In this document: piece after piece, positions 4,207-41,077 of the stretch | Layout: every line of letters begins with the position of its first letter | Numbering within the stretch: position 1 is the first letter of the stretch | Source of the DNA: Escherichia phage vB_EcoM_112 | Sequence record: NC_024125.2 | Strand: one strand, 5' to 3' | DNA length: 64,000 bases | Made by a program: the position numbers and the translations under genes | The notes under the pieces: model-generated | Seen by the model: the letters and a program-made list of their open reading frames with translations, nothing else | Database searches by the model: none | What the model was told of the DNA's origin: nothing

Positions 4207-4211
4207 TATGA

Positions 4212-16176: not shown

Positions 16177-16224
16177 CAGGGATTGTCAATTCGCAGAGTA
16201 AAATATTAGGAGCAATATAACAAC

Positions 16225-16248
16225 GGGGACCTTTCGGTCCCCATATTT
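16225..16248. terminator. Bidirectional terminator between gene 54 and the alt region
   Basis: GGGGACCTTTCGGTCCCC + TATTTTTATTT. Confidence 0.75.
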
Positions 16249-16539
16249 TTATTTGCGGAATGAAATGAAAGCAGAAACTGAAGCAACTAAACTGTCTTCA
16301 ATATAAACTTCAATTTTTACCGGAGCTTCTGACTCAAATTTACCTGTTACTACACCCTGAAAAATACTTTCAGTCTGTTCTGGCTTTGAAAAATTTTCAG
16401 AAGGAAAAATTCCAAACTTTTTATCTGTTCCGAAAATTTTGATAAATTCATCATAAACTGCTTCATTAAAAGCATTATCAGCAGGAATAACGCCTTCAAC
16501 TACAAGTTCTTGACCTAAAAAGCGTAAAGAAGATTTCAT
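16249..16539 (-). CDS. Hypothetical protein (T4 alt.-3 position)
   Basis: 96-aa ORF with SD GAGGAA, downstream of an early promoter cassette. Confidence 0.6.
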   Translation of the reverse strand: MKSSLRFLGQELVVEGVIPADNAFNEAVYDEFIKIFGTDKKFGIFPSENFSKPEQTESIFQGVVTGKFESEAPVKIEVYIEDSLVASVSAFISFRK

Positions 16540-16546
16540 TTTGTGT

Positions 16547-16600
16547 TCCTCATGTTATGTCAGTAAGACTACTATAACACAACACGAGGGACTTGTAAAC
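16547..16600. repeat. 54-bp perfect direct repeat, copy A (promoter-leader cassette)
   Basis: TCCTCATGTTATGTCAGTAAGACTACTATAACACAACACGAGGGACTTGTAAAC identical at 30140-30193. Confidence 0.9.
16571..16600 (-). promoter_or_regulatory. Early promoter (GTTTAC -35, TATAGT -10), copy 1 of 54-bp repeat
   Basis: Minus-strand GTTTAC-18-TATAGT followed by leader and SD GAGGAA. Confidence 0.6.
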
Positions 16601-16957
16601 TACATTTTGAACTTTTTAGTACGCGTAATAGGCATGCGTCGATTTTATACTGTTTCATTGTTTGAAGAGCAGTATCAAAAACAGCATTAATGACACCAAT
16701 TGGATTTCCACCCAAGTTTTTAAGCTTAACTAATGATAGTTTCTCATTAACACCTATCATTACGATATGCATCATTTTATCGCCCGGCTTAACGTTTTAT
16801 TCGTATCACCGCCAGAGGTGTATGTACAAAATCTAAATCCAGGAAGCACGCTTTCTTCGCCGGCTTGAATAGCAAAAATTTGTGGTATTTTATGCTTAGG
16901 ATTTAAGTTAACAACCGGCGCCGAAGCGCCGTCAAATAATTCTGTAATAAGTTCCAT
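16572..16957 (-). pseudogene. Two adjacent ORFs (16772-16957, 16572-16775) that are frame-shifted paralogous copies of the alt N-terminus (T4 alt.-1/alt.-2 position)
   Basis: MELITELFDGASAPVVNLNPKHKIPQIF...GFRFCTYTSGGDTN aligns to Alt residues ~2-60; MMHIV...LGGNPIGVINAVFDTALQTMKQYKIDACLLRVLKS aligns to Alt ~65-125. Confidence 0.6.
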
Positions 16958-16960
16958 GAT

Positions 16961-19012
16961 TTATCCTTGAACGAACTTGTAAGGCATGTTTGCAATATCT
17001 ATGCAAGACGCAATAATTCCAAGAGATGATTCTACTTTCTGTTTAACATTTGATGAAACAAATGATGCAAAGTCAACTCTATCTTCTATATCACCTGTCA
17101 TTGTAACCAATTCACCAGTTTCCATTAAACGGTCACCGTCATAAATTACCGATTCGGTGAGTTCTTCTGTGGTCATAACTTCAGCTTGAATAAGCTTGTT
17201 GTTAGTTCTAACTGTTCCATCGTTGTAAGATGCATCGGTTATTTTATTAACTTTGACCATTAATCCACGTGGCAAAATGACTTCCATTTCATTTGAAGGC
17301 GCTAAACTTCCACCGGGTAAAACAACATTGACCTTATCAGCCCCAGTAATAACCCATCCAATTCCAACTAAATTATCGCTAGAATTTACAAGTCCTTCAT
17401 CAGTTTTATCAATAGAAACACTTAAACGCTTTTCGTCTGGTAAAACACCCACAGATGAATCAGTCATCCAAGTACCAAAAATATTTGGATATAATGATGT
17501 TGACACAAAGTTTCTAAAATAAAAAACTCGATTTTTTACCATTGCTTCATATATTGAAGGTAACATTCGTTGTGAACGATACAAAGTAATACCTTTTGGT
17601 AATCGTTCACCATTTTTAAAGGCTGAATCTAAATTATCAATGGCTTGTTCTATTTCAGGTGCTGTTAAAATACTTGTACGCTCATCTGGATTATATAATC
17701 CCAAAAGAGCATTATTTATGTCTACATATCCTGAACCTACATATTCACGAATTCCGCGTTTTTGCGCTGGTGTGTATTTAGATGAATCTTTATTTTCGAC
17801 TATAGGATGTAATGACCATCCAGCGGTAAGAGCATATCCACGTAATTCTCTTCGAATAATCTTTGTTTTTATTGCATTCCAAGAATTTTGTACTAACTCA
17901 TTTGCAGCATCTTGGTTTAAATGCGAATGTCTGTTAATATTTCTTTCAAACCAAGCACCTTTATATTTTTCTAAAGTATCATCGACGATAGAAGCAATAG
18001 TTTCTAAAGTTTTTATTGAAGTAATAGATTCTTTTCGTAATTTTTCTAAAGCTTTATTTTTTATTTCTGCATTAATAATGGATTCTTTATCTTCAGGAAT
18101 TATAGAAGCTTCTCTGAATGCCATCCCAGCTGTAACACTGCTAAGAGCATTCTCTAGTGCAAATCCTGAAGTAGAAATTACCGTTAATTCATTAGAATCA
18201 GAAATTAAAGGAGCGTCCGCTGGTTTATTTAATTCTGCCGCTGAAGCCTCAAATTTTTGAAACATCGGTGTTTCAAATCTAGAAGATTCCAATGACTGAC
18301 TTTGTGCAATTGCTCTACGGGAAATTTTAACTTTAACGATTACAGCTTGGTCAGAACGTTTATCATTTTCTTGTGCAATAGATGCTGCAATTGCCTCATT
18401 TTTAGTTACTTGAGCTCCAGTATCTTTATTGATATAAACATCACCGACCTTCGATTCAACTTTAGTAAAGAGCTCGGTACTAATTTCCGGAACCCCTGGA
18501 ATGTCTTCTAGTGATACATTTTTGCGATGTATAAGAATATATGCATACTTTTTATCATAATCCCAGAGTTCCTTAAGAAGGACGTATCTGCCACCTGAAC
18601 GACTACGGATAAGTCTATCAGCAATAACTTGAATTTGTCGAGCTTGGCCAGCAGTTTTAGACTTAAGAATACGAAGCATACAAGCATCAATTTTATACTG
18701 ACGCATTGTTTGCAATGCAACAGTAAAAACCGAATTGATATAATTAATTGGGCTTGGACCAAGACCTTTCAATTTAGCAATTGAACCTTTAGCGGTTAAT
18801 GTAAAAGGAACAATATGCATCATTTTATCGCCCATCTTTAAATCACGATTAGTATCACCTCCAGATGTATAGGTACATAAACGAAAGCCTGGTTGTTCAA
18901 TTGCGTCATCAACATGAACTGAAAAAATTTGCGGTATTTTCTTCTTTGGATTTAAGTTTGTAATCGGAAGAGTAGTATCTTCGTCAAATAATTCTGTAAT
19001 TAGTTCCATCAT
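16961..19012 (-). CDS. alt: Alt, ADP-ribosyltransferase packaged in the head
   Basis: 683-codon ORF (T4 Alt 682 aa); N-terminus MELITELF; late-promoter-like TATAAATA on minus strand at 19033-19040. Confidence 0.9.
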   Translation of the reverse strand: MMELITELFDEDTTLPITNLNPKKKIPQIFSVHVDDAIEQPGFRLCTYTSGGDTNRDLKMGDKMMHIVPFTLTAKGSIAKLKGLGPSPINYINSVFTVALQTMRQYKIDACMLRILKSKTAGQARQIQVIADRLIRSRSGGRYVLLKELWDYDKKYAYILIHRKNVSLEDIPGVPEISTELFTKVESKVGDVYINKDTGAQVTKNEAIAASIAQENDKRSDQAVIVKVKISRRAIAQSQSLESSRFETPMFQKFEASAAELNKPADAPLISDSNELTVISTSGFALENALSSVTAGMAFREASIIPEDKESIINAEIKNKALEKLRKESITSIKTLETIASIVDDTLEKYKGAWFERNINRHSHLNQDAANELVQNSWNAIKTKIIRRELRGYALTAGWSLHPIVENKDSSKYTPAQKRGIREYVGSGYVDINNALLGLYNPDERTSILTAPEIEQAIDNLDSAFKNGERLPKGITLYRSQRMLPSIYEAMVKNRVFYFRNFVSTSLYPNIFGTWMTDSSVGVLPDEKRLSVSIDKTDEGLVNSSDNLVGIGWVITGADKVNVVLPGGSLAPSNEMEVILPRGLMVKVNKITDASYNDGTVRTNNKLIQAEVMTTEELTESVIYDGDRLMETGELVTMTGDIEDRVDFASFVSSNVKQKVESSLGIIASCIDIANMPYKFVQG

Positions 19013-19032
19013 ATCCTCTCTAGTGTTTATTC

Positions 19033-19040
19033 TATTTATA
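19033..19040 (-). promoter_or_regulatory. Late promoter (TATAAATA on minus strand) upstream of alt
   Basis: Plus-strand TATTTATA ~20 nt upstream of the alt start. Confidence 0.55.
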
Positions 19041-19045
19041 AAATT

Positions 19046-19063
19046 AAAGGCCCGAAGGCCTTT
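19046..19063 (-). terminator. Hairpin downstream of the gene 30 operon
   Basis: AAAGGCCCGAAGGCCTTT. Confidence 0.55.
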
Positions 19064-19250
19064 AGTAATCTAGTGGTAAGAGAGTACGATATATTTCAAA
19101 CTTTGGTCCTTTTTCATAGGCATCAAATGTTTCTGTGAATTTATTATAAGCGTATGCATCTACAAATTCGAGAACGATTTGTGATACAGAAGTAGAAACA
19201 TCTCCACCTTCTTTTTGAGCAATGACAATTGCTTCTAAGTAAGCTTTCAT
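19062..19250 (-). CDS. Hypothetical 62-aa protein between alt and gene 30
   Basis: ORF translationally coupled to gene 30 stop. Confidence 0.55.
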   Translation of the reverse strand: MKAYLEAIVIAQKEGGDVSTSVSQIVLEFVDAYAYNKFTETFDAYEKGPKFEIYRTLLPLDY

Positions 19251-20710
19251 AGACCAGTTACCTCATGAAAATCGCCAAATACATCTTCGAACGTATTAGC
19301 TTTAGTTTTATCTTCGCGTAAACGAATCGCAATCGGAAGAAATAATTTAACGTAATCAGTGCGGCCATCAGATTTTAACCAACCGTTGCATTCGCACTCT
19401 AGAATTTTTCCAATATAATAATTTTGGTTTTCCATAATGCGAGTACGGTCAAGTTCATGCGATTTTACACCGGCTTTATCTTTTAAGCCTGAACCAGCAT
19501 TTACCTTAATTTTTCCACACTCTGACTCAAGAATAAATCCACCTGCTTTAGTAGGGTCTTTACGGTGAGGATAAATTCCTACAATTTTTAAATCAACATC
19601 AATTACTTCTTTAAATTTATAAAGATTTTTTGAACGGGCATTTTCCCATAACCCATCAACGTTTTTGAGAATAATACCTTCAAGACCTTGGTCAATATAC
19701 TTTTTATAAATTACCTTGGCTTCGTCTAGGTTATTTACTACCTGGTTTTCAATTAAAATTACTTTATCATAGCCTGATGTCATTTGTTCTAGTTTAGAAA
19801 AACGTACATCATATTTCAAACGAAATGCAGGAAGACCGTATATTTCTACCAACGGTACATAATCCCAGACCTGAAACTTCATGCATTGAGCTTCTTTTTC
19901 AGAAATGGTTCCCTTTAAAGATTTATTAGCGATTCCATTAGAAGTAGTACGTGATTCAGCTACTTCGGCGAATTCTTTGGCTTTACTAATTTCAGGATAA
20001 GCATCAAAAAGAAAATCTAGGCCTTCTGGTTCCTTTTTAACTTGCTCATGGTATACCAATTCGCCATCAATTAACACACCTTCTGGATGAATCTGGCGGG
20101 CTTCAGCAGTCATTTTGATTAACTCTTCCTTAAGAAGATCTAATCCTAGATATTCATTACCAGCTCGTGATAAAAGACGAACATCATCTAATTCATCACC
20201 TCTGACTTCGGCAAAGCACCGAGCTCCATCAGCTTTTAATTGGGCAAAGGCTGGAAATTTGATATTCTTATTAATGCCTTTTTCATCATAAGAACTTGCC
20301 AGCATTTGAGGTTGTTCAGGAATTAAACCTGGCCAAACTTTGTTTGCAATAGATACTGAAGCACCGCATTCAAGGTCTCGCATCATCACCCGACGCAAAA
20401 CTTCAACATCATCTTTTTTACCGTCAGTAATATATCCAGTTAATTCCTCAATTGCTGCATTGCCAGTTAATTTCCGAGTAGCTAACGTGAATTCAATGAA
20501 GTCAAGCATATCGGTAATAGTCAGCATTCCAAAACTCTGGGTAGCAATACCAGGTTTAGGCCATTTCTTGATATAATACTGCAACCCACGAGAATAAGTT
20601 AAACGATATACTCGTTTAAGCAATTCATTATCTTTATTCTTTTCAAGAATTGCTTGCTTCTGCTTAGTTGAACCAATAGATGCTATTTCGTTCAGAATTT
20701 TAAGAATCAT
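19247..20710 (-). CDS. 30: ATP-dependent DNA ligase gp30
   Basis: 487 aa; near-identical to remembered T4 DNA ligase; motif I AQLKADGAR (KxDG). Confidence 0.95.
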   Translation of the reverse strand: MILKILNEIASIGSTKQKQAILEKNKDNELLKRVYRLTYSRGLQYYIKKWPKPGIATQSFGMLTITDMLDFIEFTLATRKLTGNAAIEELTGYITDGKKDDVEVLRRVMMRDLECGASVSIANKVWPGLIPEQPQMLASSYDEKGINKNIKFPAFAQLKADGARCFAEVRGDELDDVRLLSRAGNEYLGLDLLKEELIKMTAEARQIHPEGVLIDGELVYHEQVKKEPEGLDFLFDAYPEISKAKEFAEVAESRTTSNGIANKSLKGTISEKEAQCMKFQVWDYVPLVEIYGLPAFRLKYDVRFSKLEQMTSGYDKVILIENQVVNNLDEAKVIYKKYIDQGLEGIILKNVDGLWENARSKNLYKFKEVIDVDLKIVGIYPHRKDPTKAGGFILESECGKIKVNAGSGLKDKAGVKSHELDRTRIMENQNYYIGKILECECNGWLKSDGRTDYVKLFLPIAIRLREDKTKANTFEDVFGDFHEVTGL

Positions 20711-20976
20711 TGTTCATCCTTTAGAGTTTGGTTTACAGCTCTATTATAAATCAATTCATCATTAAGCTCAGTCAAAGACCTATGATATGTAGTTCTAACT
20801 TTATTTCCTTGCATCCAGTGCTTGACGTAAATGAAACCTTGTTCTACGCATTTTTTAAAAATTCGTTCGTCTTTTTGAGCACGGAATTCTGGATTGCATC
20901 TAAAAAATTGATTTACGTGACCGTAATCACGTGTAGTATTACCTTCATTTTCATAAATAGTATGAACAACAAACAT
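20707..20976 (-). CDS. Hypothetical protein (30.1 position)
   Basis: 89-aa ORF, coupled to neighbours. Confidence 0.6.
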   Translation of the reverse strand: MFVVHTIYENEGNTTRDYGHVNQFFRCNPEFRAQKDERIFKKCVEQGFIYVKHWMQGNKVRTTYHRSLTELNDELIYNRAVNQTLKDEQ

Positions 20977-21815
20977 TAGAATGCTCCTTGGAAAATATTA
21001 TCACCACTAGTAGGTCTATTATACAAATACTCTATACCGCCGGGTTTAATATAGTTCCATGTCTGAAACGGATGTGTCTGATATGGATGATATAGATGAT
21101 TATAAGGATTAAATCCAGGAGTTCTCCAGGTAGTGTTCCAAGGAAAAGAATCGTTTTTAATCATCTTTTCAATTACATCTTTTATAGCTTTTTCACTATC
21201 AAAACTTTCTTTATTTTCCTTCGGTGAAAAAAGCTTATTCTCTACATCGTTCCATGTATAAACTCGCTGAGCAGTTTTTGGAATACTGTCACGTTCCCCT
21301 CGAGCCATCCAATAAACAGGAACATTTAATATTTCACTCGCGTGATCGCAGTGGTGAGCGAGATCGTCAATATAACAAATCACGTTATATTTCTCTTTTG
21401 CCTTTTTAAACAACTCTTCTTTTGAAGAATCATGACCACACATCAGTACTTCTGAGAAGGCACCAGGAAAAAGAGCATTCAAATTAAATTGACGATTCAG
21501 CAGAGCGTCAATAGAATCACCCAATGCTGTAACAGCTACAAAATTATAATCTTCTTTTAATTTGTTAATTACACACAGGGCATCTTTATATGGAGACAAG
21601 TAACGAATAAAATCTGAACGATTGTATTTTTCAATTAACTTGACGCCAAGTTCTTCATCACAATTAAAAAGTTTACCAGGAGAAATAAATTTTTCATCTT
21701 GGATCATTTTTAAAATATGTTCCAATGGAAGATTATATTTCTGAGCAAAATAAGGAAGGCCTGATTGCCAGCTTAAACATACTCCATCAATATCAGTTAA
21801 AATAGTAGGCTTCAT
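20976..21815 (-). CDS. HAD-superfamily hydrolase / 5'-deoxynucleotidase-like protein (30.2 position)
   Basis: 279 aa; N-terminal ILTDIDGVC matches HAD motif I (DxDGV). Confidence 0.7.
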   Translation of the reverse strand: MKPTILTDIDGVCLSWQSGLPYFAQKYNLPLEHILKMIQDEKFISPGKLFNCDEELGVKLIEKYNRSDFIRYLSPYKDALCVINKLKEDYNFVAVTALGDSIDALLNRQFNLNALFPGAFSEVLMCGHDSSKEELFKKAKEKYNVICYIDDLAHHCDHASEILNVPVYWMARGERDSIPKTAQRVYTWNDVENKLFSPKENKESFDSEKAIKDVIEKMIKNDSFPWNTTWRTPGFNPYNHLYHPYQTHPFQTWNYIKPGGIEYLYNRPTSGDNIFQGAF

Positions 21816-22276
21816 AGAGAGTCTCTTAATAGGTTTAACACATCAATAAATTCAGCTTCGGTTAGTATTGTATCATCTTTTGTTAGACCACTAGCCATGC
21901 TGTGCTTCAAAACTTTTCCTTTCGAGGCTTGTAATGCATCACGAAAGCCCTTGTTTTGGATTGCTGCTTCAAAATATGCATTTGTGTATAATTCTTTCCA
22001 CGCCGGGGAGTATCTTGAAAACGGAACTCCAAGCCAGAAGAGGGTCCCACGGTCCTGAGCTCTAGCATAAGACCTTCCAGCTTGTTGAGCGGCAAGCCCG
22101 GATAACCCAAATATACGACGTTGTTGTTCAACATTTTTCACCTTGCATCCTTGGAGGAATCCTTCAAGACCTCCAAATTGAATACCATCCATAACGAAAG
22201 GCCATTGGGCGAAATTACTTAATGCACATGATGGCCACCTAAAATTGCTTCTAATCTCTAACTCAGACATTTTCAA
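21812..22276 (-). CDS. NADAR (YbiA/DUF1768-like) domain protein (30.3 position)
   Basis: 154 aa; LSNFAQWPFVMDGIQFGGLEGFLQGCK resembles YbiA/NADAR core (SNFxxWP...DG...E.fQ..K). Confidence 0.65.
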   Translation of the reverse strand: MKMSELEIRSNFRWPSCALSNFAQWPFVMDGIQFGGLEGFLQGCKVKNVEQQRRIFGLSGLAAQQAGRSYARAQDRGTLFWLGVPFSRYSPAWKELYTNAYFEAAIQNKGFRDALQASKGKVLKHSMASGLTKDDTILTEAEFIDVLNLLRDSL

Positions 22277-22469
22277 TGCTTATAATTTCAACATCAGCCC
22301 AATGACCATAGCAAGGAAGACGAAATTCAACTGGCCAGTTAGGGTCCTTTTCTAATATAATAGACTCAACTCGTGGTTCTTCATGTTCATCAGTATATGG
22401 ATTTTTATCTGTTACTTTATATGTGACCTTAATGTACTGAATTCCAAAAATCTTATTAATTATATTCAT
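22263..22469 (-). CDS. Hypothetical 68-aa protein
   Basis: ORF in operon, overlapping starts/stops. Confidence 0.5.
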   Translation of the reverse strand: MNIINKIFGIQYIKVTYKVTDKNPYTDEHEEPRVESIILEKDPNWPVEFRLPCYGHWADVEIISIENV

Positions 22470-22663
22470 ACTAATTCCTTTAATCCGTAGATAGGAGATA
22501 ATTCATCGCCCATATGAAGGTCTTCATTTCCATCTACCCAAGAAACAATATAAGCCTCTTTTACTTGAACATCTCCCAATTTAAATGCGGGTAAAACCTT
22601 AGAAATTAATCCAGGTATACCAACTCCCTTTAATTCAACGGTTTGACCTAAAAAGAATTTCAT
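22466..22663 (-). CDS. Hypothetical 65-aa protein
   Basis: ORF in operon. Confidence 0.5.
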   Translation of the reverse strand: MKFFLGQTVELKGVGIPGLISKVLPAFKLGDVQVKEAYIVSWVDGNEDLHMGDELSPIYGLKELV

Positions 22664-22953
22664 TAGAACCTCATCTGAAACCCATGTGATTTAACATTAC
22701 CGCCATTAATATCAGAACTATTAATTTCGCGTGCAATTGAGGGATCAATGTCAATTTCACGATTGAGTTTAGCGATAGCTAGAGTATCACGCCCATTTAC
22801 AGTACGAAACTCTAAAGGGCAGACTGCATTAACATAGTTTTTAATCGATTCACTGGTAGGTTGCAAATGAGCAGGAAGGTCTTTAGGCGCCTTAGAGAAA
22901 ACCACTTCACAGAAATTTTTGCGGGTATCAAAATAAGTAGTCATAAACATAGT
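22663..22953 (-). CDS. Hypothetical protein (start moved to MFMTTYF)
   Basis: SD GAGGAAAA 7 nt upstream of ATG at 22953; the longer track ORF would run through terminator hairpin 22967-22982. Confidence 0.55.
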   Translation of the reverse strand, partial: TMFMTTYFDTRKNFCEVVFSKAPKDLPAHLQPTSESIKNYVNAVCPLEFRTVNGRDTLAIAKLNREIDIDPSIAREINSSDINGGNVKSHGFQMRF

Positions 22954-22966
22954 ATTTTCCTCAGTA

Positions 22967-22982
22967 AGGGGCCGAAGCCCCT
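22967..22982 (-). terminator. Hairpin terminator within the 30.x cluster
   Basis: AGGGGCCGAAGCCCCT. Confidence 0.6.
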
Positions 22983-22990
22983 GTTTTATT

Positions 22991-23356
22991 TTAAATATCA
23001 AATTCGTTAAGAACTACATCAAAGATTGCTTCAAGATGCTCAGGTTTAGCTCTGTTACTCAGAATATGACGAATCCAAGTTTTAACCAGAAGCTTACGAT
23101 TGACGCCATTCCAGCAAGGATGAGTCCCTAAATCACGTTGACGAAAATCATCATCTAATGCGATTTTAAAAGAAGAACCTTCTTTCGTGATTGAAACCGT
23201 GATGCCATTTTCAAATCGCATATAAACGTAGTTAGGAGTCATATACTGTTCAATTTCGCATACTGATCCATTTTGATGTTTCCAAAGGCAGATAGTATCA
23301 ATAGAACCTGCAATACCGTTAGAAACATATTTACGTTCAAAGTTGATGTAGTTCAT
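22991..23356 (-). CDS. Hypothetical 121-aa protein
   Basis: Preceded by early promoter (GTTTAC-17-TATTAT) at 23393-23422 and SD GGAGAA. Confidence 0.6.
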   Translation of the reverse strand: MNYINFERKYVSNGIAGSIDTICLWKHQNGSVCEIEQYMTPNYVYMRFENGITVSITKEGSSFKIALDDDFRQRDLGTHPCWNGVNRKLLVKTWIRHILSNRAKPEHLEAIFDVVLNEFDI

Positions 23357-23392
23357 TTTTATTCTCCGAGATGTTTAATTGCGGTACAGATA

Positions 23393-23422
23393 TATAATAT
23401 CATATCCTGTACCAAAGTAAAC
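23393..23422 (-). promoter_or_regulatory. Early promoter GTTTAC-17-TATTAT
   Basis: Sigma-70 / T4 early consensus upstream of ORF 22991-23356. Confidence 0.6.
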
Positions 23423-23424
23423 AA

Positions 23425-23757
23425 TTATTTTACTACTTTCCAATGCTTCATGTCAAGTTTACCAACTTTTTTCATCTTCTCAATTAAGCGTTCGGCACGT
23501 TGGCGAGCTGTAACATAATACCATTCACCTAATTCATTTTGTTCAATTTTTCCAACGATTACTGTATTCAATTCATAAATCCAACCAGTAAAGAAATTAT
23601 GAACTTGGATTGTAAAGGTGAAATCTGTTCCCATACCTTCTGTTGTTTCTACTTCAATAATATCACCTTCAACTGCCATTAAGAACCACATAGTTTCATC
23701 ATATTTACCATTGAAGCATTTAGTTTTAACTGTAGCGTTCAGATTAATCGTTTTCAT
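23425..23757 (-). CDS. Hypothetical 110-aa protein
   Basis: ORF with SD AAGGAG upstream. Confidence 0.6.
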   Translation of the reverse strand: MKTINLNATVKTKCFNGKYDETMWFLMAVEGDIIEVETTEGMGTDFTFTIQVHNFFTGWIYELNTVIVGKIEQNELGEWYYVTARQRAERLIEKMKKVGKLDMKHWKVVK

Positions 23758-23843
23758 TTTATTCTCCTTTGTTTGTGTAAGATAATACTATCACAAAGGA
23801 ACCGTACTGTAAACAACTTTATGCAATCTTTGGAAAATAAAAA

Positions 23844-23863
23844 AGGACTCCCGAAGGAGTCCT
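23844..23863 (-). terminator. Hairpin terminator
   Basis: AGGACTCCCGAAGGAGTCCT with flanking A/T runs. Confidence 0.65.
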
Positions 23864-23867
23864 CAAC

Positions 23868-24044
23868 TTATGCTTTCTGCTTACCAAAACGAGAAGCATC
23901 ATCTCGAAGAACCGCACGTGCTCGGCGCATGATCTTCTCAACAGTTTGATTGATACGAGAGTTCGACCCACGCTTGTAGCCAGCGCGTTTAGAATCACCA
24001 ACTTTCTTTTCAACTGCTTTCTTTGCTTTAGCTTGTTTTGCCAT
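23868..24044 (-). CDS. Small basic protein (MAKQAKAKKAVEKK...)
   Basis: Start moved to internal ATG preceded by SD AAGAG; lysine/arginine rich. Confidence 0.5.
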   Translation of the reverse strand: MAKQAKAKKAVEKKVGDSKRAGYKRGSNSRINQTVEKIMRRARAVLRDDASRFGKQKA

Positions 24045-24332
24045 TATAAATTCTCTTTTAAATGAAAATGCAGGACTTATTGGCATTGCCTGCGCAAGCC
24101 CTCAAGGGGAACATAGGTTTTGAATATTTACCGACAGGATAACCATAAACCTCGTCAACATACCACCAAGACTTACACAGATAACACTTTTCTGACGCAT
24201 GATAGTAACATTCAAGAGGTACACCATAAAACTGCCGGGGTCTTAAAACTATAATGATTCGCAAATCATTAATCAGACAGTTCGATGGCTCCTCGATTTT
24301 AGCTCACACTAAGGCAGTGAATCTCCAATAAA

Positions 24333-24581
24333 TTACTTCAGTGTTACCACAAAGTGACGAACTGCTTTTCGTGCAGCAGAAGCCAAAGGCTTAGCATACT
24401 TAAGTTCATCTTTTTCCTGGAGCTCAGCAGCTAATGCAGTTTGAGCAGGATTTAGATGTTTGAAATAACGCAGGATTTCAAGAGCTTCGGCTTCAACATC
24501 AATAGATGCGCCATAGTTTTCGTGACCATTATTCCATGCGTTTCGTTGCAGTTCAAGAGCGTGTTGTAATTGTTTAATCAT
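24333..24581 (-). CDS. rIII: rIII lysis inhibition accessory protein
   Basis: 82 aa (T4 rIII length); position between 30.x cluster and gene 31. Confidence 0.82.
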   Translation of the reverse strand: MIKQLQHALELQRNAWNNGHENYGASIDVEAEALEILRYFKHLNPAQTALAAELQEKDELKYAKPLASAARKAVRHFVVTLK

Positions 24582-24728
24582 TTAAAAATTCTCGTTAGAG
24601 ATTAAAACTCGGTAGTCACGTTCTTCTGAATTTCATCTTCTTTCGACAGATCTCTCAGTTGTAGACTACCACATAGAATTGTTCGGTTAACTTATTATTC
24701 CGACACCCAATTCATATTATTATTTATA

Positions 24729-25064
24729 TCACTTATAAAGACATGGAATAGCTTTATAGTGACAAGTAACGAATTTTTGTTTAATTTCTTTTGGCTGCTT
24801 AAGACCCAGAGCTACAAAAGGATGCGGAACATTTCGAATTTGACCAACTGGAAGAGAAGTCAAATCACCAACTTCGCAGAAACCTTCAGGAACATCAGGA
24901 CCAACAGAGTGAACTACACACAATTCAGGAACTTCACCTTGAACACGTTTACCGATAATAAGCCCTGATTCTGTGACTTCTTCATCGCCAGCTTGTGCAG
25001 GTTCAGAAACTAAAATAACATATTCACCGACAGCACGAATTGGTAGCTGTTGTACTTCAGACAT
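24729..25064 (-). CDS. 31: gp31 co-chaperonin (GroES analog)
   Basis: 111 aa; matches remembered T4 gp31 ([18 protein letters not shown]...). Confidence 0.92.
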
Positions 25065-25120
25065 CGTTTTTCCTTTTTGTTAACAGATGAATTAATAATA
25101 ACAAATAATTCTTAAAGCAT

Positions 25121-25429
25121 TTATTTACCAATAAATTGGAGCAAATGCTCAACTTTCATACCATTAACGGAAATCAATTTGTCAATAGAAAAACCTCGCC
25201 ATGCGCCAAGTTCAACATCAAATACTGGAATCATGTCAGTAGATTCTTTCCGAGTAGATTCAGTCAATTTACCAGTTTGCATGGTTGGCATAAAGTCTGC
25301 ATCACGAGTACCTTTCATAGTACGAATAGTACCATCAGACTTTTCAAAAACTACGTTTGAAACACCCATGGACAATTTAGTTTTCAAAATTTCGCGAATT
25401 GCTACTTTCTGCTCAGTTGTCAGTTTCAT
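25121..25429 (-). CDS. Hypothetical protein (31.1 position)
   Basis: 102-aa ORF. Confidence 0.6.
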   Translation of the reverse strand: MKLTTEQKVAIREILKTKLSMGVSNVVFEKSDGTIRTMKGTRDADFMPTMQTGKLTESTRKESTDMIPVFDVELGAWRGFSIDKLISVNGMKVEHLLQFIGK

Positions 25430-25669
25430 TTATTTACCTATTACAGTTTTAATATGAGTTGTTCCACGTTCTTTAAGGGTGGAAAGTAATTTTTGGCATT
25501 TTTCTAAATCAGATTTCCAACTATATGGTTTATCAATACAAACCCAATTTGTCTTATAATACTGTTTCCATTTAGAGAAAAAATATTTCTTATACTCTAC
25601 AGCAAATGAGATGTTCTCATTAGAATAAGAACTAATTGCTGTGAGCTTTACCAAACGAAATTTCATCAT
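25430..25669 (-). CDS. Hypothetical protein (31.2 position)
   Basis: 79-aa ORF coupled to cd. Confidence 0.55.
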   Translation of the reverse strand: MMKFRLVKLTAISSYSNENISFAVEYKKYFFSKWKQYYKTNWVCIDKPYSWKSDLEKCQKLLSTLKERGTTHIKTVIGK

Positions 25670-26247
25670 TCACCACAGAATTCGTTGATATTTTCCCAGT
25701 TTAACTTATTCAAGTTTTTCTTAGGAACATTAAACACTTCAATACCTGCATTTCGCAAAATATCATCCCAACCAGGTTTATTTTTATCATATGTTTCGCA
25801 ATAAACCAGCTTTTTAATACCAGATTGAGCTATCGCTTTTGCACAATCTGGACAAGGAGAAAGTGTTACATACATAGTAGCACCTTCAATAGAAGAACCA
25901 TTTCGTGCAGCAAACAAAATTGCATTTAATTCAGCATGAATTTCATTTTTAGATGACCATTCCGAGTGAGCGCTGCGGTGTTCTTTCGCCAAGACAAAAC
26001 GATCAGTTGAACCAAATGATACACATTCAGGCTTATGACCTTGAATGATAGTATGTTTAGGCTTATTCAATAACCAACCTTGCTCAGCAGCATAATCACA
26101 ACAGTTCACACCCCCTGCGGGTGAACCATTATACCCAGTAGAAATAATACGTCCATTCTTTTCAATTACTGCTCCTACCTTCCAGGAGCAACATTTTGAT
26201 TCTTGTGATACTAAATATGCAATTTGAAGTACTGTACTCGCTTTCAT
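25666..26247 (-). CDS. cd: dCMP deaminase
   Basis: 193 aa; cytidine/deoxycytidylate deaminase zinc motifs HAELNAI and PCPDCAKAI. Confidence 0.9.
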   Translation of the reverse strand: MKASTVLQIAYLVSQESKCCSWKVGAVIEKNGRIISTGYNGSPAGGVNCCDYAAEQGWLLNKPKHTIIQGHKPECVSFGSTDRFVLAKEHRSAHSEWSSKNEIHAELNAILFAARNGSSIEGATMYVTLSPCPDCAKAIAQSGIKKLVYCETYDKNKPGWDDILRNAGIEVFNVPKKNLNKLNWENINEFCGE

Positions 26248-26582
26248 TTCATAATCACCAGATAAGCAGATTTAGCAGTTTCAACACGATAAATTTCGTG
26301 ACGAAGTTTAGTTATACTTTTAATAACAGAACTAATTATATTCTGCCCATCTTTAAAGCGGTTTTTCTTATCAATAAAAACTGCGCCAGTCATCTTTTTG
26401 TGAAGCTCAACTGGATACTTCGTCACAATAATAGCATCATATACAGAAGGATGAATACTATTTACTAGAGTGTCATTCATTAAAGTTATTCTAATGAACT
26501 GTGCCGTTTCAGAGTCAAGCGCTCTATGATCGCCAGTATCATTTTCAAGACAATTATCAATTATATCAGTTAAATTCATCAT
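26244..26582 (-). CDS. Hypothetical protein (cd.1 position)
   Basis: 112-aa ORF. Confidence 0.55.
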   Translation of the reverse strand: MMNLTDIIDNCLENDTGDHRALDSETAQFIRITLMNDTLVNSIHPSVYDAIIVTKYPVELHKKMTGAVFIDKKNRFKDGQNIISSVIKSITKLRHEIYRVETAKSAYLVIMK

Positions 26583-26818
26583 AGTACGCCATACACCCTT
26601 TGTGCTTCAACTAATCCATCAAAATCTAATTTAAGATGCGATATTTGATCGCCATCACCTGGATTCACAATTACTAATACTGAGCGAGGAGTTTCGGTAA
26701 TAACACGAACCGATGTTTCAGGAAATCGTTCAGAAACCTTATTTACCAATTCCTGTGCAAATAGCTTAACTTTTTCTTGGAATTCTTTAACAGTAATCGG
26801 TTTTTCACTTAACAGCAT
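26579..26818 (-). CDS. Hypothetical protein (cd.2 position)
   Basis: 79-aa ORF; early promoter at 26848-26877. Confidence 0.55.
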   Translation of the reverse strand: MLLSEKPITVKEFQEKVKLFAQELVNKVSERFPETSVRVITETPRSVLVIVNPGDGDQISHLKLDFDGLVEAQRVYGVL

Positions 26819-26847
26819 TTTGTTTTCCTCATTTGTTTGGTAGAGCT

Positions 26848-26877
26848 ATAATATCACAACTCTACCGTAAAGTAAAC
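26848..26877 (-). promoter_or_regulatory. Early promoter GTTTAC-18-TATTAT with -10 inside an inverted repeat
   Basis: Upstream of ORF 26579-26818; -10 lies between 7-bp inverted repeats GGTAGAG/CTCTACC. Confidence 0.55.
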
Positions 26878-26879
26878 TA

Positions 26880-27185
26880 TTAAATTGCTTTGAATTCTGC
26901 TGTCTGCGATTCAAAACGAATATCGCCTTGGATAACTAGCTCAGCATCAAGACCGAATACAACAATGATATGTGCAGAACCTGGATACAGCGTAATTGCA
27001 ATAGAATCCACCTGGTCTGGAAGCAAAGTGTTCAATACATGAGTCACTTGAGCATGGATTCGAAGTTCGGCTGCGTTATCAAGCTTTTCAAACATATTAT
27101 TAGCGATAATTTGACTAAACACTACTTCTACGATTTTAGAATAAGTCGGAAACATATTTACCTCACATAATTTTCTTCGAGCCAA
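26880..27185 (-). CDS. Hypothetical protein (cd.3 position)
   Basis: 101-aa ORF. Confidence 0.55.
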   Translation of the reverse strand: MARRKLCEVNMFPTYSKIVEVVFSQIIANNMFEKLDNAAELRIHAQVTHVLNTLLPDQVDSIAITLYPGSAHIIVVFGLDAELVIQGDIRFESQTAEFKAI

Positions 27186-27350
27186 TCAATAACATCCAAC
27201 GCATTATCAAAAGTTGAACCATCTACTTTGTCTTCTGTTTCATAATCAAGAACATCTAAACCTACTCTTCCATCAACAATAGGCCATAAACAAAACAGGT
27301 ATTTCTTTTCTTTTTCAATTTTATCGCAAAGACGATAAATCTTTTCTATG

Positions 27351-27358
<8 letters not shown>
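27158..27358 (-). CDS. Hypothetical protein (cd.4 position)
   Basis: 66-aa ORF. Confidence 0.5.
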
Positions 27359-28764
<1,406 letters not shown>

Positions 28765-28992
28765 TTATTTTTTCTCAACCAGTGATTGAATATAATCATG
28801 CAGGTCTTTAGATGCTTTGCCCCACTTATTTTGATATTCATTTTTGAGATTAGCACGTGATTGAGCTAATAAAACATCATTAGTTGGAGGTAAAGATTCT
28901 AACCGCTGAATTTGGCGTCCATAAATCATTGCTGCCATCTCGGATTCATAAATCAATCCTTTGAGATGTTCAAATTGATGCCATGAAATCAT
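28765..28992 (-). CDS. Hypothetical protein (pseT.2 position)
   Basis: 75-aa ORF. Confidence 0.5.
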   Translation of the reverse strand: MISWHQFEHLKGLIYESEMAAMIYGRQIQRLESLPPTNDVLLAQSRANLKNEYQNKWGKASKDLHDYIQSLVEKK

Positions 28993-29288
28993 TTACATTT
29001 ATCCTCTTTTAACTCTTGACGATAATAACATATCATAGTTTTCTGGTCATGTACATATCGTTTTACATCATTAAGCCAAATACGGAATTCCTGAGAATCT
29101 TCAAATGGCATACCGACCCAAGCTTTACCATCGATAACTTTAACTTGCCAAGATAGTTTAGCTTCGTCATATGACTTTATTTGTACAGGCCAATTAGGAT
29201 GAACTGTTTCTTTCTTTACTTCTAGAGGCTTTGTCGAACAACCAACTAGAAGACCAATAGATAATATTACTGCTGATAGTTTAATCAT
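28989..29288 (-). CDS. Predicted lipoprotein
   Basis: N-terminus MIKLSAVILSIGLLVGCS = signal peptide with lipobox L-V-G-C. Confidence 0.6.
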   Translation of the reverse strand: MIKLSAVILSIGLLVGCSTKPLEVKKETVHPNWPVQIKSYDEAKLSWQVKVIDGKAWVGMPFEDSQEFRIWLNDVKRYVHDQKTMICYYRQELKEDKCK

Positions 29289-29638
29289 TTAGAAAGGTCC
29301 TGGATGTCTTCTGCGAACTTGTTGAAGGAGTTGTTGATTTGTTTTTCAACCAATCCTGGCTTATGAGCCACCACATCCGCCTTCTTTGCGGCTTTGCGCA
29401 GTGTTTCATTTTCACGCTCAATAGCAGCAATTGCCTCACGATTTTTATTATTCATCGCATCAATATAATTATACTGAATTCGCAAATTATTTAATGCTAA
29501 AGCGTTTTCATTGGCTGTTTTTGTAATTTCAGTAACTGATGTTTCTAATCTTTCTACCTTATTTTTTAAAATAATAGATGTTCCGCCAAATGCTATTACA
29601 AGTAATAGCAATCCAGCTGTAAAATTACTTACATGCAT
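29285..29638 (-). CDS. Predicted membrane-anchored coiled-coil protein
   Basis: N-terminal hydrophobic helix LLLLVIAFGGTSIIL followed by heptad-rich sequence. Confidence 0.55.
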   Translation of the reverse strand: MHVSNFTAGLLLLVIAFGGTSIILKNKVERLETSVTEITKTANENALALNNLRIQYNYIDAMNNKNREAIAAIERENETLRKAAKKADVVAHKPGLVEKQINNSFNKFAEDIQDLSK

Positions 29639-30135
29639 AAAGTTTTAATAACCTCTATAATATCGTCTTGAGAAAGACCGTTAATTAAAATATGATGTTC
29701 AGCTGGAGATTTAGAAATTTTAAAGCATGCCTCAACATCTTCTGCCATATCCGATGCACTACGATTTGGATTACTAATCCCAAGGCGGTGTTTTCCCGTC
29801 AAAGGATTAACAATAATGTAGCATTTACAACTATTGATATGAACATTAGGCTGAGTCTGATTAATGAACACTTCACAATCATACTTAGCGAGTTGATTTT
29901 CTAAAAAGACTTTCATCTCTTCAACCGCATCAGGAAGCATATCACGGGCTTGCTCAAGACGACGATTTCGATATTCTTTAATGGTCGTTTTCCGCTTGAC
30001 TTGCTTAGCTAAATCTTTCTTAAGATCAGTGATATATCCAACTCGACGATTTCCTTTGAATACCGAAATCCCATCTGTAGTATCACCGTATGCTTCAACG
30101 ACCATTTCAGTAGTAATAAGCTGCAAATCCATCAT
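29629..30135 (-). CDS. alc: Alc, host transcription (unmodified-cytosine DNA) inhibitor
   Basis: 168-codon ORF (T4 Alc ~167 aa); early promoter cassette and SD GAGGA upstream. Confidence 0.78.
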   Translation of the reverse strand: MMDLQLITTEMVVEAYGDTTDGISVFKGNRRVGYITDLKKDLAKQVKRKTTIKEYRNRRLEQARDMLPDAVEEMKVFLENQLAKYDCEVFINQTQPNVHINSCKCYIIVNPLTGKHRLGISNPNRSASDMAEDVEACFKISKSPAEHHILINGLSQDDIIEVIKTLCM

Positions 30136-30139
30136 AAAG

Positions 30140-30193
30140 TCCTCATGTTATGTCAGTAAGACTACTATAACACAACACGAGGGACTTGTAAAC
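30140..30193. repeat. 54-bp perfect direct repeat, copy B
   Basis: Identical to 16547-16600. Confidence 0.9.
30164..30193 (-). promoter_or_regulatory. Early promoter upstream of alc, copy 2 of 54-bp repeat
   Basis: Identical to 16547-16600 over 54 bp. Confidence 0.6.
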
Positions 30194-30196
30194 AGC

Positions 30197-31784
<1,588 letters not shown>

Positions 31785-39970: not shown

Positions 39971-40213
39971 TTAAACAGACTTTTTCACAATTTTCCAATC
40001 AGCTTTAAACTGATTAACATCAGAATGATAAATCCAGAATCCTGCGCTTTCTCCGTCTTCATAAAGAGGACACCCATCGCATTCATCTTCCCATCCCATA
40101 TCACGTAAAAGATGTTCAGCTTTTTCAACGAGCTCAGAATCTTTACCGATGATATTAAAATACCATTTACCTCTAACTTCTGAATCTTTGATGCTTTGGC
40201 GTTGTAATCTCAT
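39971..40213 (-). CDS. Hypothetical protein (frd.2 position; start moved to MRLQRQ)
   Basis: SD GAGGAG upstream of ATG at 40213; the longer track ORF would begin inside the early promoter at 40225-40256. Confidence 0.55.
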   Translation of the reverse strand: MRLQRQSIKDSEVRGKWYFNIIGKDSELVEKAEHLLRDMGWEDECDGCPLYEDGESAGFWIYHSDVNQFKADWKIVKKSV

Positions 40214-40224
40214 TTTATTCTCCT

Positions 40225-40256
40225 CATGTAGTTGATAGGGTAATAGTATCACACTA
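40225..40256 (-). promoter_or_regulatory. Early promoter GTTTAC...TACTAT with CTATCAACTAC leader
   Basis: Upstream of the frd.2 re-called start. Confidence 0.5.
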
Positions 40257-40271
40257 CTACCCTACTGTAAA

Positions 40272-40658
40272 CTACTTTTTGAAAGTTTTTCGCAAAAGTT
40301 CAATGATTTCATCTACATTGTTTTCGTCTACAATGCAGTGAATTTTTGTTACACCAGAAACTATACCTTCATTAGCGGATTGAGGCTTTTCTAAAGTTAC
40401 CTCAGTAAAGTATTTGAATTCTTCAGAGTAAATCTCAAAATACGTCTCAAGTGGGCCACCCGCCATGTATTCAGTGCCATCTTCCATAGTTACACGTACC
40501 ACACATTCACCAGCACAATCATCACTTTCCATTTCATCTACAACAAAACTAGGTCCGTGCTTCTCTATTAAATTTAGCATCATTACATTGCAACGGCACT
40601 CGTTAGCAAAGTCATTTTTAAATAAAGGGTTAATGATATAAGTTTTTCCAACTTCCAT
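40272..40658 (-). CDS. Hypothetical protein (frd.3 position)
   Basis: 128-aa ORF. Confidence 0.6.
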   Translation of the reverse strand: MEVGKTYIINPLFKNDFANECRCNVMMLNLIEKHGPSFVVDEMESDDCAGECVVRVTMEDGTEYMAGGPLETYFEIYSEEFKYFTEVTLEKPQSANEGIVSGVTKIHCIVDENNVDEIIELLRKTFKK

Positions 40659-40932: not shown

Positions 40933-40975
40933 ATTATTTTCCTCTTTAATCATCAGCAGTATTGCCGATAGTTGT

Positions 40976-41005
40976 ATAGTACCATGGAAGGACAAGGATG
41001 TAAAC
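40976..41005 (-). promoter_or_regulatory. Early promoter cassette (GTTTAC-18-TACTATAC) with A/T-rich UP element
   Basis: Shares ~75 bp with 58261-58336. Confidence 0.6.
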
Positions 41006-41036
41006 AGTTTTGTGAAAAAATTTTTGAAATAAAAAA

Positions 41037-41055: not shown

Positions 41056-41077
41056 AATTAATTAGTAATATAATCTA

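Follow-up and report, generated by a model that had tools for sequence, protein, structure and literature searches.

Within the 64,000-nucleotide stretch of DNA analysed here (the window), which derives from a Tequatrovirus, one 54-nt sequence stands in front of two genes 13.6 kb apart without a single difference between its copies. This raises two questions: what the element does, and what has kept its copies alike. The explanation that we consider rather likely is that they are two copies of one cassette of the 'promoter-early stem-loop' (PeSL) type, equipped with a hairpin that gates the Shine-Dalgarno (SD) sequence, and that the two loci exchange sequence by ectopic gene conversion.

A repeated early-promoter cassette

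The 54-mer (TCCTCATGTTATGTCAGTAAGACTACTATAACACAACACGAGGGACTTGTAAAC on the plus strand) matches the window exactly at 16547-16600 (copy A, upstream of alt.-3) and 30140-30193 (copy B, upstream of alc), as a direct repeat. No third copy was found in the window at up to three mismatches, and no chance match arose in 100 dinucleotide-preserving shuffles. Its borders are sharp: on the gene strand, identity is 100% inside the repeat, 29% over the 80 nt upstream and 32% over the 47 nt downstream. Identity within the window's remaining cassette families is 61-78%, versus 100% for this pair. A preliminary description had reported a perfect direct repeat, and this was confirmed. The T4 orthologs lie at 123040-123093 for copy A (one base different) and 136283-136336 for copy B (identical), and both loci show position-for-position orthology with T4.

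Both copies run from a -35 box through an SD on the minus strand, where they read TTTACA-N17-TGnTATAGT followed by a leader ending in GAGGA. A consensus scan of each gave TTTACA, a 17-nt spacer, TATAGT and the TG extension, with 10/12 matches. The -35 hexamer of copy A lies at 16594-16599 (the G of GTTTAC being 16600) and its -10 hexamer at 16571-16576, with TGn at 16577-16579; from the usual 7-nt distance, transcription is predicted to start near 16564. The corresponding features of copy B are at 30187-30192 and 30164-30169, with a predicted start near 30157. The SD at 16547-16551 precedes by 7 nt the ATG (16539) of alt.-3 (16249-16539, minus strand), which encodes 96 aa with a DUF5498 domain (Pfam PF17602, E 5e-64), and the SD at 30140-30144 precedes by 4 nt the ATG (30135) of alc (29629-30135, minus strand), which encodes the 168-aa inhibitor of host transcription (Pfam PF17527 ALC, E 2.5e-92); both names follow the T4 annotation. 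A published T4 time course assigns both the RNA and the protein of alt.-3 and alc to the early class (PMC9697503 supplement). The consensus match, the orthology with T4 and this time course together support the original reading of each copy as an early-promoter and leader/SD cassette for its gene.

The repeat had also been called non-coding. This describes copy B, which occupies the rnlA-alc intergenic space, the stop codon of rnlA (RNA ligase 1; 30197-31321, minus strand, start at 31321 from the 1125-nt T4 annotation) lying 3 nt before its -35 box, but it does not describe copy A. There the 3' end of the alt.-2 ORF (16572-16775, minus strand), a remnant of a second alt gene, makes up the first 29 nt as read on the gene strand; this ORF crosses the -35 box and spacer and ends with the TAG within TTATAGT.

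The repeat is an element of a known kind, in that it fits the published anatomy of the PeSL cassettes of T4-type phages (Arbiol et al. 2010, PMC2839356; Comeau et al. 2014, PMC4122927). As in PeSLs, a strong sigma-70-type early promoter fitting the PST/T4 promoter consensus TTTACW-N17-TAYWAT is combined with a stem-loop that contains G-T pairs and lies in the spacer or overlaps the -10 box; the 3' end is formed by the SD and start codon; and one gene's stop codon and the next gene's ATG flank the element. PeSLs are likewise repeated and their copies recombine, with crossovers mapped between the -10 box and the SD/ATG. Unlike PeSLs, the present copies do not flank a dispensable ORFan in a hyperplastic region but lie 13.6 kb apart around essential genes, so that only conversion, and not excision, could persist. 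Their stem also lacks a poly-G/poly-C run, the SD itself serving as its 3' arm.

The hairpin and the Shine-Dalgarno sequence

A 42-nt hairpin is predicted on the sense strand at 16548-16589 in copy A and, with the same structure, at 30141-30182 in copy B. It comprises a 14-bp lower stem (CCUCGUGUUGUGUU of the spacer with GACAUAACAUGAGG), a 2-nt bulge, a 4-bp upper stem and the loop GUCU. Its minimum free energy is -22 kcal/mol (z -5.39), and none of 200 shuffles was equally stable. The hairpin, the main structural feature of the cassette, had been overlooked in the preliminary description. It was kept in all 21 natural haplotypes (-15.8 to -25.6 kcal/mol); covariation within the genus is weak, with one compensatory pair and an observed value reached by 78/500 shuffles.

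The helix pairs the promoter spacer (CCUC...) with the SD (...GAGG) and encloses the -10 box close to the stem's upper end. Because of this position of the box, transcripts from the cassette's own promoter would lack the 5' arm, whereas read-through RNA would carry an occluded SD. The calculated probability that the SD of alc is unpaired was 0.008 in read-through RNA and 0.71 in RNA from the predicted start. For alt.-3 (copy A) it was 0.001 in a 224-nt read-through context and 0.16 in promoter-proximal RNA, the latter within a fold of only -4.5 kcal/mol.

Upstream read-through into both copies is plausible, as the scan detected no terminator upstream of either and a late-promoter consensus precedes alt. 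No terminator-like site was found at 29500-30700, and none between rnlA and copy B, so that rnlA transcripts should enter the cassette. The match to the T4 late-promoter consensus TATAAATA (19033-19040, minus strand), about 20 nt upstream of alt, probably supplies late read-through RNA to copy A; T4 records annotate Alt as a virion-packaged protein. Transcription of the alt.-3 unit ends at a bidirectional terminator-like hairpin in the alt.-3/gene 54 gap (16223-16244), which was found by the scan and is listed as a terminator in the record of phage G8. In the T4 time course, alt.-1 and alt.-2, just upstream of alt.-3, give 'middle' RNA with protein undetected, and rnlA gives early RNA and late protein (PMC9697503 supplement). 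For neither site did the literature searched report measurements of transcription start, RNA structure or translation.

These features suggest a model in which RNA from the cassette's own promoter would start at about position 37, contain the 3' arm only and leave the SD accessible. Upstream RNA would contain both arms and fold the SD into the helix; alc would receive such RNA from rnlA, and alt.-3 from the late promoter of alt by way of the alt remnant. On these folding predictions, Alc and Alt.-3 are probably translated only from their own immediate-early transcripts. The arrangement resembles the ribosome-binding-site hairpins of T4 e, soc, 49 and I-TevI (Uzan and Miller 2010, PMC3014915), in which the SD is buried in upstream-derived transcripts and a promoter in or over the 5' arm yields transcripts that lack the arm and, in known cases, are translated. 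In those genes the internal promoter is a late one (TATAAATA) and translation is delayed until late, whereas here a sigma-70 early promoter is predicted to have the reverse effect. Neither alc nor alt.-3 is among the hairpin cases listed in PMC3014915.

Complementarity between the spacer and the SD also occurs upstream of alc in at least five other lineages, with different sequences (arm pairs such as TCTCCATTTGGTT/AACCAAATGGAGA, TCCTCATTTCGTT/AACGAAATGAGGA and CCTCGTTTGTT/AACAAACGAGG). A GTTTAC promoter with such a spacer was found at alc in JS98 (Dhakavirus), Citrobacter phages CF1/Moon and Serratia phage CHI14, and further in Potts1-like Klebsiella phages and in locus L021. Outgroup alc hairpins with this complementarity had z-scores of -3.7 to -6.7, and the SD was fully paired in 9 of the 11 cross-genus alc cassettes. 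Arms paired more stably with their cognate partner than with non-cognate ones (-16.4 vs -9.0 kcal/mol, permutation p = 1e-5), the cognate arm being the best partner in 7/9 lineages. In the cross-genus MAFFT alignment used for a fixed-register count, the helix changes register between lineages. In three outgroup lineages (L026/27, L017 and L016) the hairpin is absent or the SD lies outside it, and L018-20 lack a promoter dedicated to alc.

In the PeSL papers the stem-loop is read as terminating transcription, and translation is nowhere mentioned. By their proposal, a terminator or attenuator would insulate alc and alt.-3 from upstream transcription, and occlusion of the SD would be incidental. 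An RB49/phi1 PeSL stem-loop placed before lacZ reduced expression roughly as strongly as the rrnB T1 terminator did (PMC2839356), and the SA20RB record annotates copy A as a rho-independent terminator (WebGeSTer). However, neither copy is followed by a U-tract, the terminator scan was empty at both sites, and the outgroup hairpins lead into A-rich tails (0-4 U in 8 nt) and so are not intrinsic terminators. Moreover, the trait conserved across genera, an SD within the 3' arm, is one that a terminator does not need. A purely insulating role is therefore unlikely, although termination and SD occlusion could coexist.

The inverted repeat might instead act at the DNA level, by forming a cruciform or by binding a dimeric protein, in early-promoter shut-off or recombination targeting. 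The centre of the palindrome coincides with the -10/+1 region, the PeSL authors speculated on a stem-loop DNA-binding protein (PMC2839356), and early-promoter shut-off in T4 is not fully explained (PMC2988021). In most outgroups, furthermore, the antisense strand folds about as well as the sense strand, and this parity leaves RNA-level action of the helix short of established. The sense fold is clearly favoured only in Tequatrovirus (-22 vs -12.8 kcal/mol), where the helix contains three G-U pairs that would be mismatches in DNA and in the other strand. The arms also differ between genera yet stay mutually complementary, a signature of nucleic-acid pairing and not of a conserved protein site. 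Action in DNA consequently appears very unlikely.

Probable exchange between the two loci

The cassette is distributed genus-wide, with 995 copies in about 498 Tequatrovirus phage records, or about two per record. The two copies of a genome differ by 1-5 bases in T4, G8, T6 and others (in T4 they are identical at 53/54 positions and differ at cassette position 40), and the haplotype of both window copies is the commonest at both loci (10/49 copies). Exchange was analysed in 23 mutually related genomes, a sample chosen to be rich in variant copies. Among them there was no fixed difference between A and B, and at 7 of the 10 sites polymorphic in B the same allele was polymorphic in A. The two-site haplotype 29A+32A occurs in both copies of PP01 and UFV10, and 32A+34T in copy B of SA20RB and copy A of Shfl2. 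The A-B distance was 2.30 within genomes and 2.72 between genomes (permutation p = 0.014). The absence of fixed differences, together with alleles and two-site haplotypes common to both loci, indicates recurrent ectopic gene conversion and not one recent event. The shared single-site polymorphisms could in part reflect recurrent mutation at the few unconstrained positions (loop, bulge).

It may be objected that old duplicates of a strong early promoter would stay alike by purifying selection on the promoter and ribosome-binding site only, their identity reflecting shared ancestry and no exchange. The prevalence of one haplotype at both loci agrees with this, as does the distribution of variation, which is least in the -35 box and stem arms (pi 0-0.06) and concentrated in the -10 region and loop (pi about 0.10). 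A copying event shortly before the radiation of the genus would likewise leave no net divergence between the loci. However, the loci share the same derived alleles at seven sites, independent mutation would rarely place two different two-site haplotypes at both, and copies in one genome are the more alike. Diversity of the repeat (0.039-0.055) is not below that of the flanking coding DNA (0.028-0.087), so that constraint alone does not explain the likeness. Descent without exchange is thus doubtful. Recurrent conversion gives a pattern like the concerted evolution of dispersed repeats, with its shared polymorphisms and haplotypes, lack of fixed paralog differences and greater likeness within genomes; it differs in that the unit is a regulatory cassette, not a gene, and spans only 54 bp, near the lower limit for homologous recombination in T4.

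The perfect identity of the copies had at first been attributed to a recent conversion or transposition in the source genome, with a substrate for deleting the intervening 13.6 kb as its main consequence. Exchange between the loci is borne out by the 23 genomes, but a recent event in this genome is not supported, as both copies are present throughout the genus and here carry its commonest haplotype. The interval contains gene 30 (DNA ligase) and gene 31 (co-chaperonin), both of which are essential in T4, and a deletion phage could not grow alone; records retain about two copies each. Deletion is formally possible, 54 bp being close to the homology required for recombination in T4 (Singer 1982, as cited in PMC2839356), and PeSL recombination yields circles in RB49/phi1. 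A single recent event with this outcome is nevertheless highly improbable.

The direction of the original transfer is suggested by the outgroup alt.-3 cassettes, in which a comparable hairpin is absent (z +0.4 to -2.4) and which share 41-61% identity with the alc cassette in their own genome. Because they lack the hairpin, we infer that the alc cassette probably overwrote that of alt.-3. Identity of the Tequatrovirus cassette to outgroup cassettes is 63-80% for the alc and alt.-3 kinds alike, so sequence identity does not identify the donor. The hairpin design would then be ancestral at alc, and in the Tequatrovirus ancestor the alc cassette would have replaced a different alt.-3 cassette, in a tract ending in the -35 and SD motifs common to all early cassettes. 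Since then, short tracts may have been swapped by ectopic gene conversion through the phage recombination system, and only non-crossover products would survive, because a crossover deletes or duplicates 13.6 kb including essential genes. In the Dhakavirus-like contig L012, the alc cassette is chimeric, its last 29 nt being the alt.-3 leader of its relatives.

An early promoter cassette shared by alc and alt.-3

The 54-nt cassette occurs exactly twice in the window, at 16547-16600 (copy A) and 30140-30193 (copy B) on the plus strand (repeat family D5), and no third copy with three or fewer mismatches was found there. No 54-mer repeat was obtained in 100 shuffled sequences, and the exact repeat reported in the preliminary description was confirmed by this self-comparison of the window. 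Read on the gene strand, the cassette is GTTTACAAGTCCCTCGTGTTGTGTTATAGTAGTCTTACTGACATAACATGAGGA. Identity between the copies is 100% inside the repeat but falls to 29% over the 80 nt upstream and 32% over the 47 nt downstream; the cassette borders are therefore sharp. Copy A lies directly upstream of alt.-3 (16249-16539, minus strand; DUF5498) and overlaps the final 29 nt of the alt.-2 ORF. Copy B occupies the gap between rnlA and alc (29629-30135, minus strand; Pfam ALC), with the rnlA stop codon 3 nt ahead of its -35 element; at copy A of T6-type genomes, GTTTAC shares its G with the TAG of the alt paralogue. The DNA upstream of the -35 element is coding and, by eye, A/T-rich (ACTAAAAAGTTCAAAATGTA at copy A; a TTTTTTGAAAAATTATAAAAAATTTA run farther upstream at copy B). 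The window belongs to Tequatrovirus: its alt region is 99.3% identical to that of vB_EcoM_G8 and 97.7% identical to that of T4, and its alc region has 97-98% identity to many T4-type phages.

A consensus scan identified TTTACA, a 17-nt spacer, a TG extension and TATAGT at both copies (10 of 12 matches), in agreement with the UP/-35/TGn/-10 organization described for T4 early promoters (PMC2988021). The 3' end of the cassette is the Shine-Dalgarno (SD) motif GAGGA, placed 7 nt ahead of the alt.-3 ATG and 4 nt ahead of the alc ATG. In a T4 time course (PMC9697503 supplement), alt.-3 and alc were early for both RNA and protein, alt.-1 and alt.-2 (just upstream of copy A) were classed as 'middle' for RNA without detected protein, and rnlA had early RNA and late protein. 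The early class of alt.-3, set against the 'middle' class of alt.-1 and alt.-2, agrees with an early promoter of its own immediately before alt.-3. A mapped promoter or start site for alc or alt.-3 was not found in the literature searched. The consensus elements at both copies, the SD and the early class in T4 together bear out the earlier reading of the repeat as a promoter plus leader.

The alt.-1 and alt.-2 ORFs (16572-16957) are what an internal deletion of ~1.7 kb has left of a second alt gene, which is full-length (685 aa) in T6, PP01, RB27 and others. The deletion joint falls in a 9-bp direct repeat, CTAAAAAGT (16611-16619), which precedes copy A by 11 nt. The edge of copy A itself was also considered as the joint and was rejected, as the flank GTTCAAAATGTA is unchanged in genomes with the full-length alt paralogue.

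A hairpin joining the promoter spacer to the SD

Folding of the gene-strand 54-mer as a single strand produced a hairpin that the preliminary description had missed: an 18-bp interrupted helix of -22 kcal/mol (z -5.39), equalled in stability by none of 200 shuffles. The helix spans the spacer, the -10 box and the leader, and contains three G-U pairs. The promoter spacer (cassette positions 12-25, CCUCGUGUUGUGUU) pairs with the leader and SD (40-53, GACAUAACAUGAGG); the -10 box (25-30) falls at the bulge and in the upper stem, below a GUCU loop. The 5' arm covers positions 12-31 and the predicted transcription start is near position 37, so RNA from the cassette's own promoter would carry the 3' arm only. 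Leader-only folds had energies of -2.2 and -4.8 kcal/mol with z near 0. The predicted probability that the SD is unpaired was 0.001-0.008 in read-through contexts of 221-224 nt; in promoter-proximal RNA it was 0.71 for alc and 0.16 for alt.-3, the alt.-3 fold amounting to only -4.5 kcal/mol. Read-through RNA is expected, since a terminator scan detected no terminator-like site upstream of either copy and a match to the T4 late-promoter consensus (TATAAATA, 19033-19040, minus strand) lies about 20 nt ahead of the start of alt, as fits a protein that is packaged into the virion.

The helix is kept in all 21 natural haplotypes, with energies from -15.8 to -25.6 kcal/mol, and the frequent variants either fall in the loop or bulge or preserve pairing. 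One genome carries a compensatory C-G to U-A change in the helix. A covariation test within the genus, where variation is too low to be informative, gave a single compensatory pair, and 78 of 500 shuffles reached the observed value.

The hairpin does not have the features of an intrinsic terminator: a G+C-rich hairpin followed by a U-run was not detected at either copy, the tails being ACACAAAAUG and CUUUAUGAUG. Rfam returned no matches across the whole window at the gathering threshold. The cassette is unmarked in most records and is called a terminator in at least one public record, that of phage SA20RB (OL960581.1, locus L036:1702-1751), where copy A is labelled as rho-independent (WebGeSTer) with no U-tract after it. 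That label is likely a mis-annotation of the promoter hairpin.

Loci from Tevenvirinae lineages outside Tequatrovirus (outgroups) were obtained with gp31 as the anchor; four of the lineages were identified as JS98 (Dhakavirus), Citrobacter phages CF1/Moon, Serratia phage CHI14 and Potts1-like Klebsiella phages. The 54-mer, allowing 14 mismatches, was absent from all of the outgroup loci obtained. Most outgroups have a GTTTAC promoter before alc with a spacer complementary to the SD region, in sequences that differ between lineages (spacer/SD arm pairs TCTCCTCAT/ATGAGGAGA, TCTCCATTTGGTT/AACCAAATGGAGA, TCCTCATTTCGTT/AACGAAATGAGGA, CCTCGTTTGTT/AACAAACGAGG and ATCTCCGTTT/AAACGGAGAT). The outgroup alc hairpins have z values of -3.7 to -6.7, 9 of 11 distinct cassettes pair the whole SD, and the tails that follow the helices are A-rich, not U-rich. 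There are exceptions: the hairpin ends before the SD at loci L026/27 and L017 and is missing at L016. At three further loci of a single lineage (L018, L019 and L020; alc at ~3200-4400), neither a GTTTAC promoter nor a hairpin was seen within 95 nt upstream of the alc start.

RNAalifold predicted no pairs from a MAFFT alignment of the multi-genus alc cassettes, and a fixed-register pair count on the MAFFT alignment was no better than a slide of -1. The helix register varies between lineages, and a register-free comparison of cognate with non-cognate arms was therefore used. Across nine lineages, cognate arms gave a pairing energy of -16.4 kcal/mol and non-cognate ones -9.0 kcal/mol (permutation p = 1e-5); in seven of the nine, no arm was a better partner than the cognate one. 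A comparison of sense with antisense folding in the various genera gave no consistent sign that the helix acts as RNA.

Probable exchange between the loci and likely origin of the alt.-3 copy

A blastn search with the 54-mer matched 995 places in 498 phage records, about two per record; the best copy had at least 99% identity in 256 records and 95-99% in 237. In T4 the alc copy is the same as the window's and the alt.-3 copy differs by one base, a marker between the copies that makes the conversion rate directly measurable. Both loci were compared in 23 genomes, drawn mainly from GenBank records since IMG/VR yielded few Tequatrovirus contigs, and picked partly for variable copies, which biases the sample towards differences between A and B. 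The copies were identical in 5 of these genomes and differed by 1-5 bases in the remainder, and there was no fixed difference between the loci. Seven of ten sites variable at the alc locus are also variable, with the same allele, at the alt.-3 locus. The two-site haplotype 29A+32A is found in both copies in PP01 and UFV10, and 32A+34T occurs at alc in SA20RB and at alt.-3 in Shfl2. A-B differences were 2.30 within genomes and 2.72 between genomes (permutation p = 0.014, only indicative as the genomes are interrelated), and the repeat is not less diverse (0.039-0.055 per site) than the coding DNA that flanks it.

From the sequence comparison, these patterns are read as recurrent short-tract exchange between both loci, not as simple conservation or a single recent event. 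The perfect identity had been attributed to a recent conversion or transposition, an account largely overturned by the presence of both copies across ~498 Tequatrovirus records and by the alleles and haplotypes common to both loci. The cassette pair shows an unusually clean record of concerted evolution.

The copies had also been proposed as a substrate for deletion of the 13.6 kb between them. Within this interval lie alt, gene 30 (DNA ligase), rIII, gene 31, cd, pseT and alc. Two of them, genes 30 and 31, are essential according to established T4 genetics, so the crossover product would be unable to grow alone, and we infer that only non-crossover conversion is able to persist. With these two genes in the interval and two copies in each record, the deletion proposal is largely wrong.

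A different early promoter (e.g., GTTTACAACACCACAAGGATGTGGTA...) precedes alt.-3 in the outgroups; it lacks a strong hairpin (z +0.4 to -2.4), and its cassette shares only 41-61% identity with the one before alc in the same genome. As the spacer-SD hairpin is found at outgroup alc, with no strong one at outgroup alt.-3, alc is its ancestral site. The most economical account is that, in the ancestor of Tequatrovirus, the cassette of alc took the place of the one before alt.-3, the direction being given by architecture only; the incoming tract would end in the -35 and SD motifs common to all early cassettes. Sequence identity was also tried as a guide to the donor and was rejected, as the cassette is 63-80% identical to outgroup cassettes of both kinds. 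A chimeric alc cassette occurs in a Dhakavirus-like contig, L012 (IMGVR_UViG_2706795356_000001, ~3880-3940): toward the 5' end it matches the JS98-like alc cassette, and the final 29 nt (CCTTACACAAACATGAGGAGAACATTATG) coincide with the alt.-3 leader in the related contigs L011, L013 and L015. This shows exchange between alc and alt.-3 in a second genus as well. The alc/alt.-3 pair is probably a clean natural example in which an entire regulatory module (promoter, RNA switch and RBS) was copied to a second gene and has since been held uniform by conversion over 13.6 kb of essential DNA.

Relation to known cassettes and a possible translational gate

The cassette is a member of the PeSLs, the 'promoter-early stem-loop' cassettes of T4-type phages. 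PeSLs have an SD and ATG at the 3' end, with crossovers mapped between the -10 box and the SD/ATG (PMC2839356), and the T4/PST pair was added to them, with TTTACW-N17-TAYWAT as its consensus (PMC4122927). The promoter studied here is TTTACA-N17-TATAGT, with one mismatch to TAYWAT in the -10 box, and the natural 29A variant is TATAAT. The 18-bp interrupted helix across spacer, -10 and leader corresponds to the stem-loop, and the cassette likewise ends at the SD and start codon of the downstream gene and, at its 5' end, at the stop codon of the upstream gene. The recombination typical of PeSLs (indels, mini-circles, chimeric cassettes) is probably represented by the alleles and haplotypes common to both loci and by the L012 chimera. 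In both PeSL papers the stem-loop is interpreted as a terminator, and translation goes unmentioned (PMC2839356, PMC4122927). At the two copies studied here, the helix has no U-tract after it and the terminator scan was empty.

The hairpins of e, soc, 49 and I-TevI (PMC3014915) pair the SD/AUG in transcripts from upstream, as is predicted for the cassette, and transcripts from the proximal promoter lack the 5' arm, as would those from the predicted start here. Those genes have an internal late promoter (TATAAATA), whereas the cassette promoter is of the sigma-70 early type and TATAAATA is absent from the cassette. The cassette thus lies outside the e/soc/49/I-TevI class as defined, although it is alike in its predicted working.

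With an early promoter inside a hairpin that buries the SD, Alc would be translatable only from its own immediate-early transcript, and in Tequatrovirus the same gate would apply to Alt.-3. Such a gate would mirror in time the late-promoter hairpins at e, soc, 49 and I-TevI; it would be preserved through covariation in five or more other Tevenvirinae lineages, and 54-bp gene conversion could carry it from gene to gene. It might also operate at other early genes, e.g., behind the cassettes at 61446 and 23814. For this cassette, an early-specific gating role, as modelled from predicted folds, is unproven and testable. It is conceivable, if somewhat short of probable, that the stem-loops of PeSL-type early cassettes are translational gates, instead of or besides being terminators. 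Alc shuts off host transcription, and the timing of its synthesis therefore matters. If the proposal is true, T4-type phages limit Alc synthesis to the first minutes by a cis-acting RNA device that is not known to be listed in any review of T4 post-transcriptional control, and PeSL stem-loops gain a function beyond termination.

Further GTTTAC-type early promoters with hairpins across the spacer, -10 box and leader are present at 61386-61446, 26816-26877, 40211-40272, 23755-23814 and 23354-23422 (all minus strand), so the design is not unique to the alc/alt.-3 pair. The SD is fully paired in the hairpin at 61446 (z -5.5) and paired in that at 23814 (z -2.1); it is free in those at 40272 and 23422. 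A family of 98-nt repeats (40967-41064, 58267-58364 and 61913-62010; 61-78% identity) combines an early promoter with an AT-rich tract, to which two of the copies add a G+C-rich hairpin; the family resembles PeSLs with a terminator upstream. Hairpins of the GGGGCCGAAGCCCC type (4187-4206, 22963-22982, 62806-62825 and 63034-63053; 80-95% identity) are probably shared intrinsic terminators.
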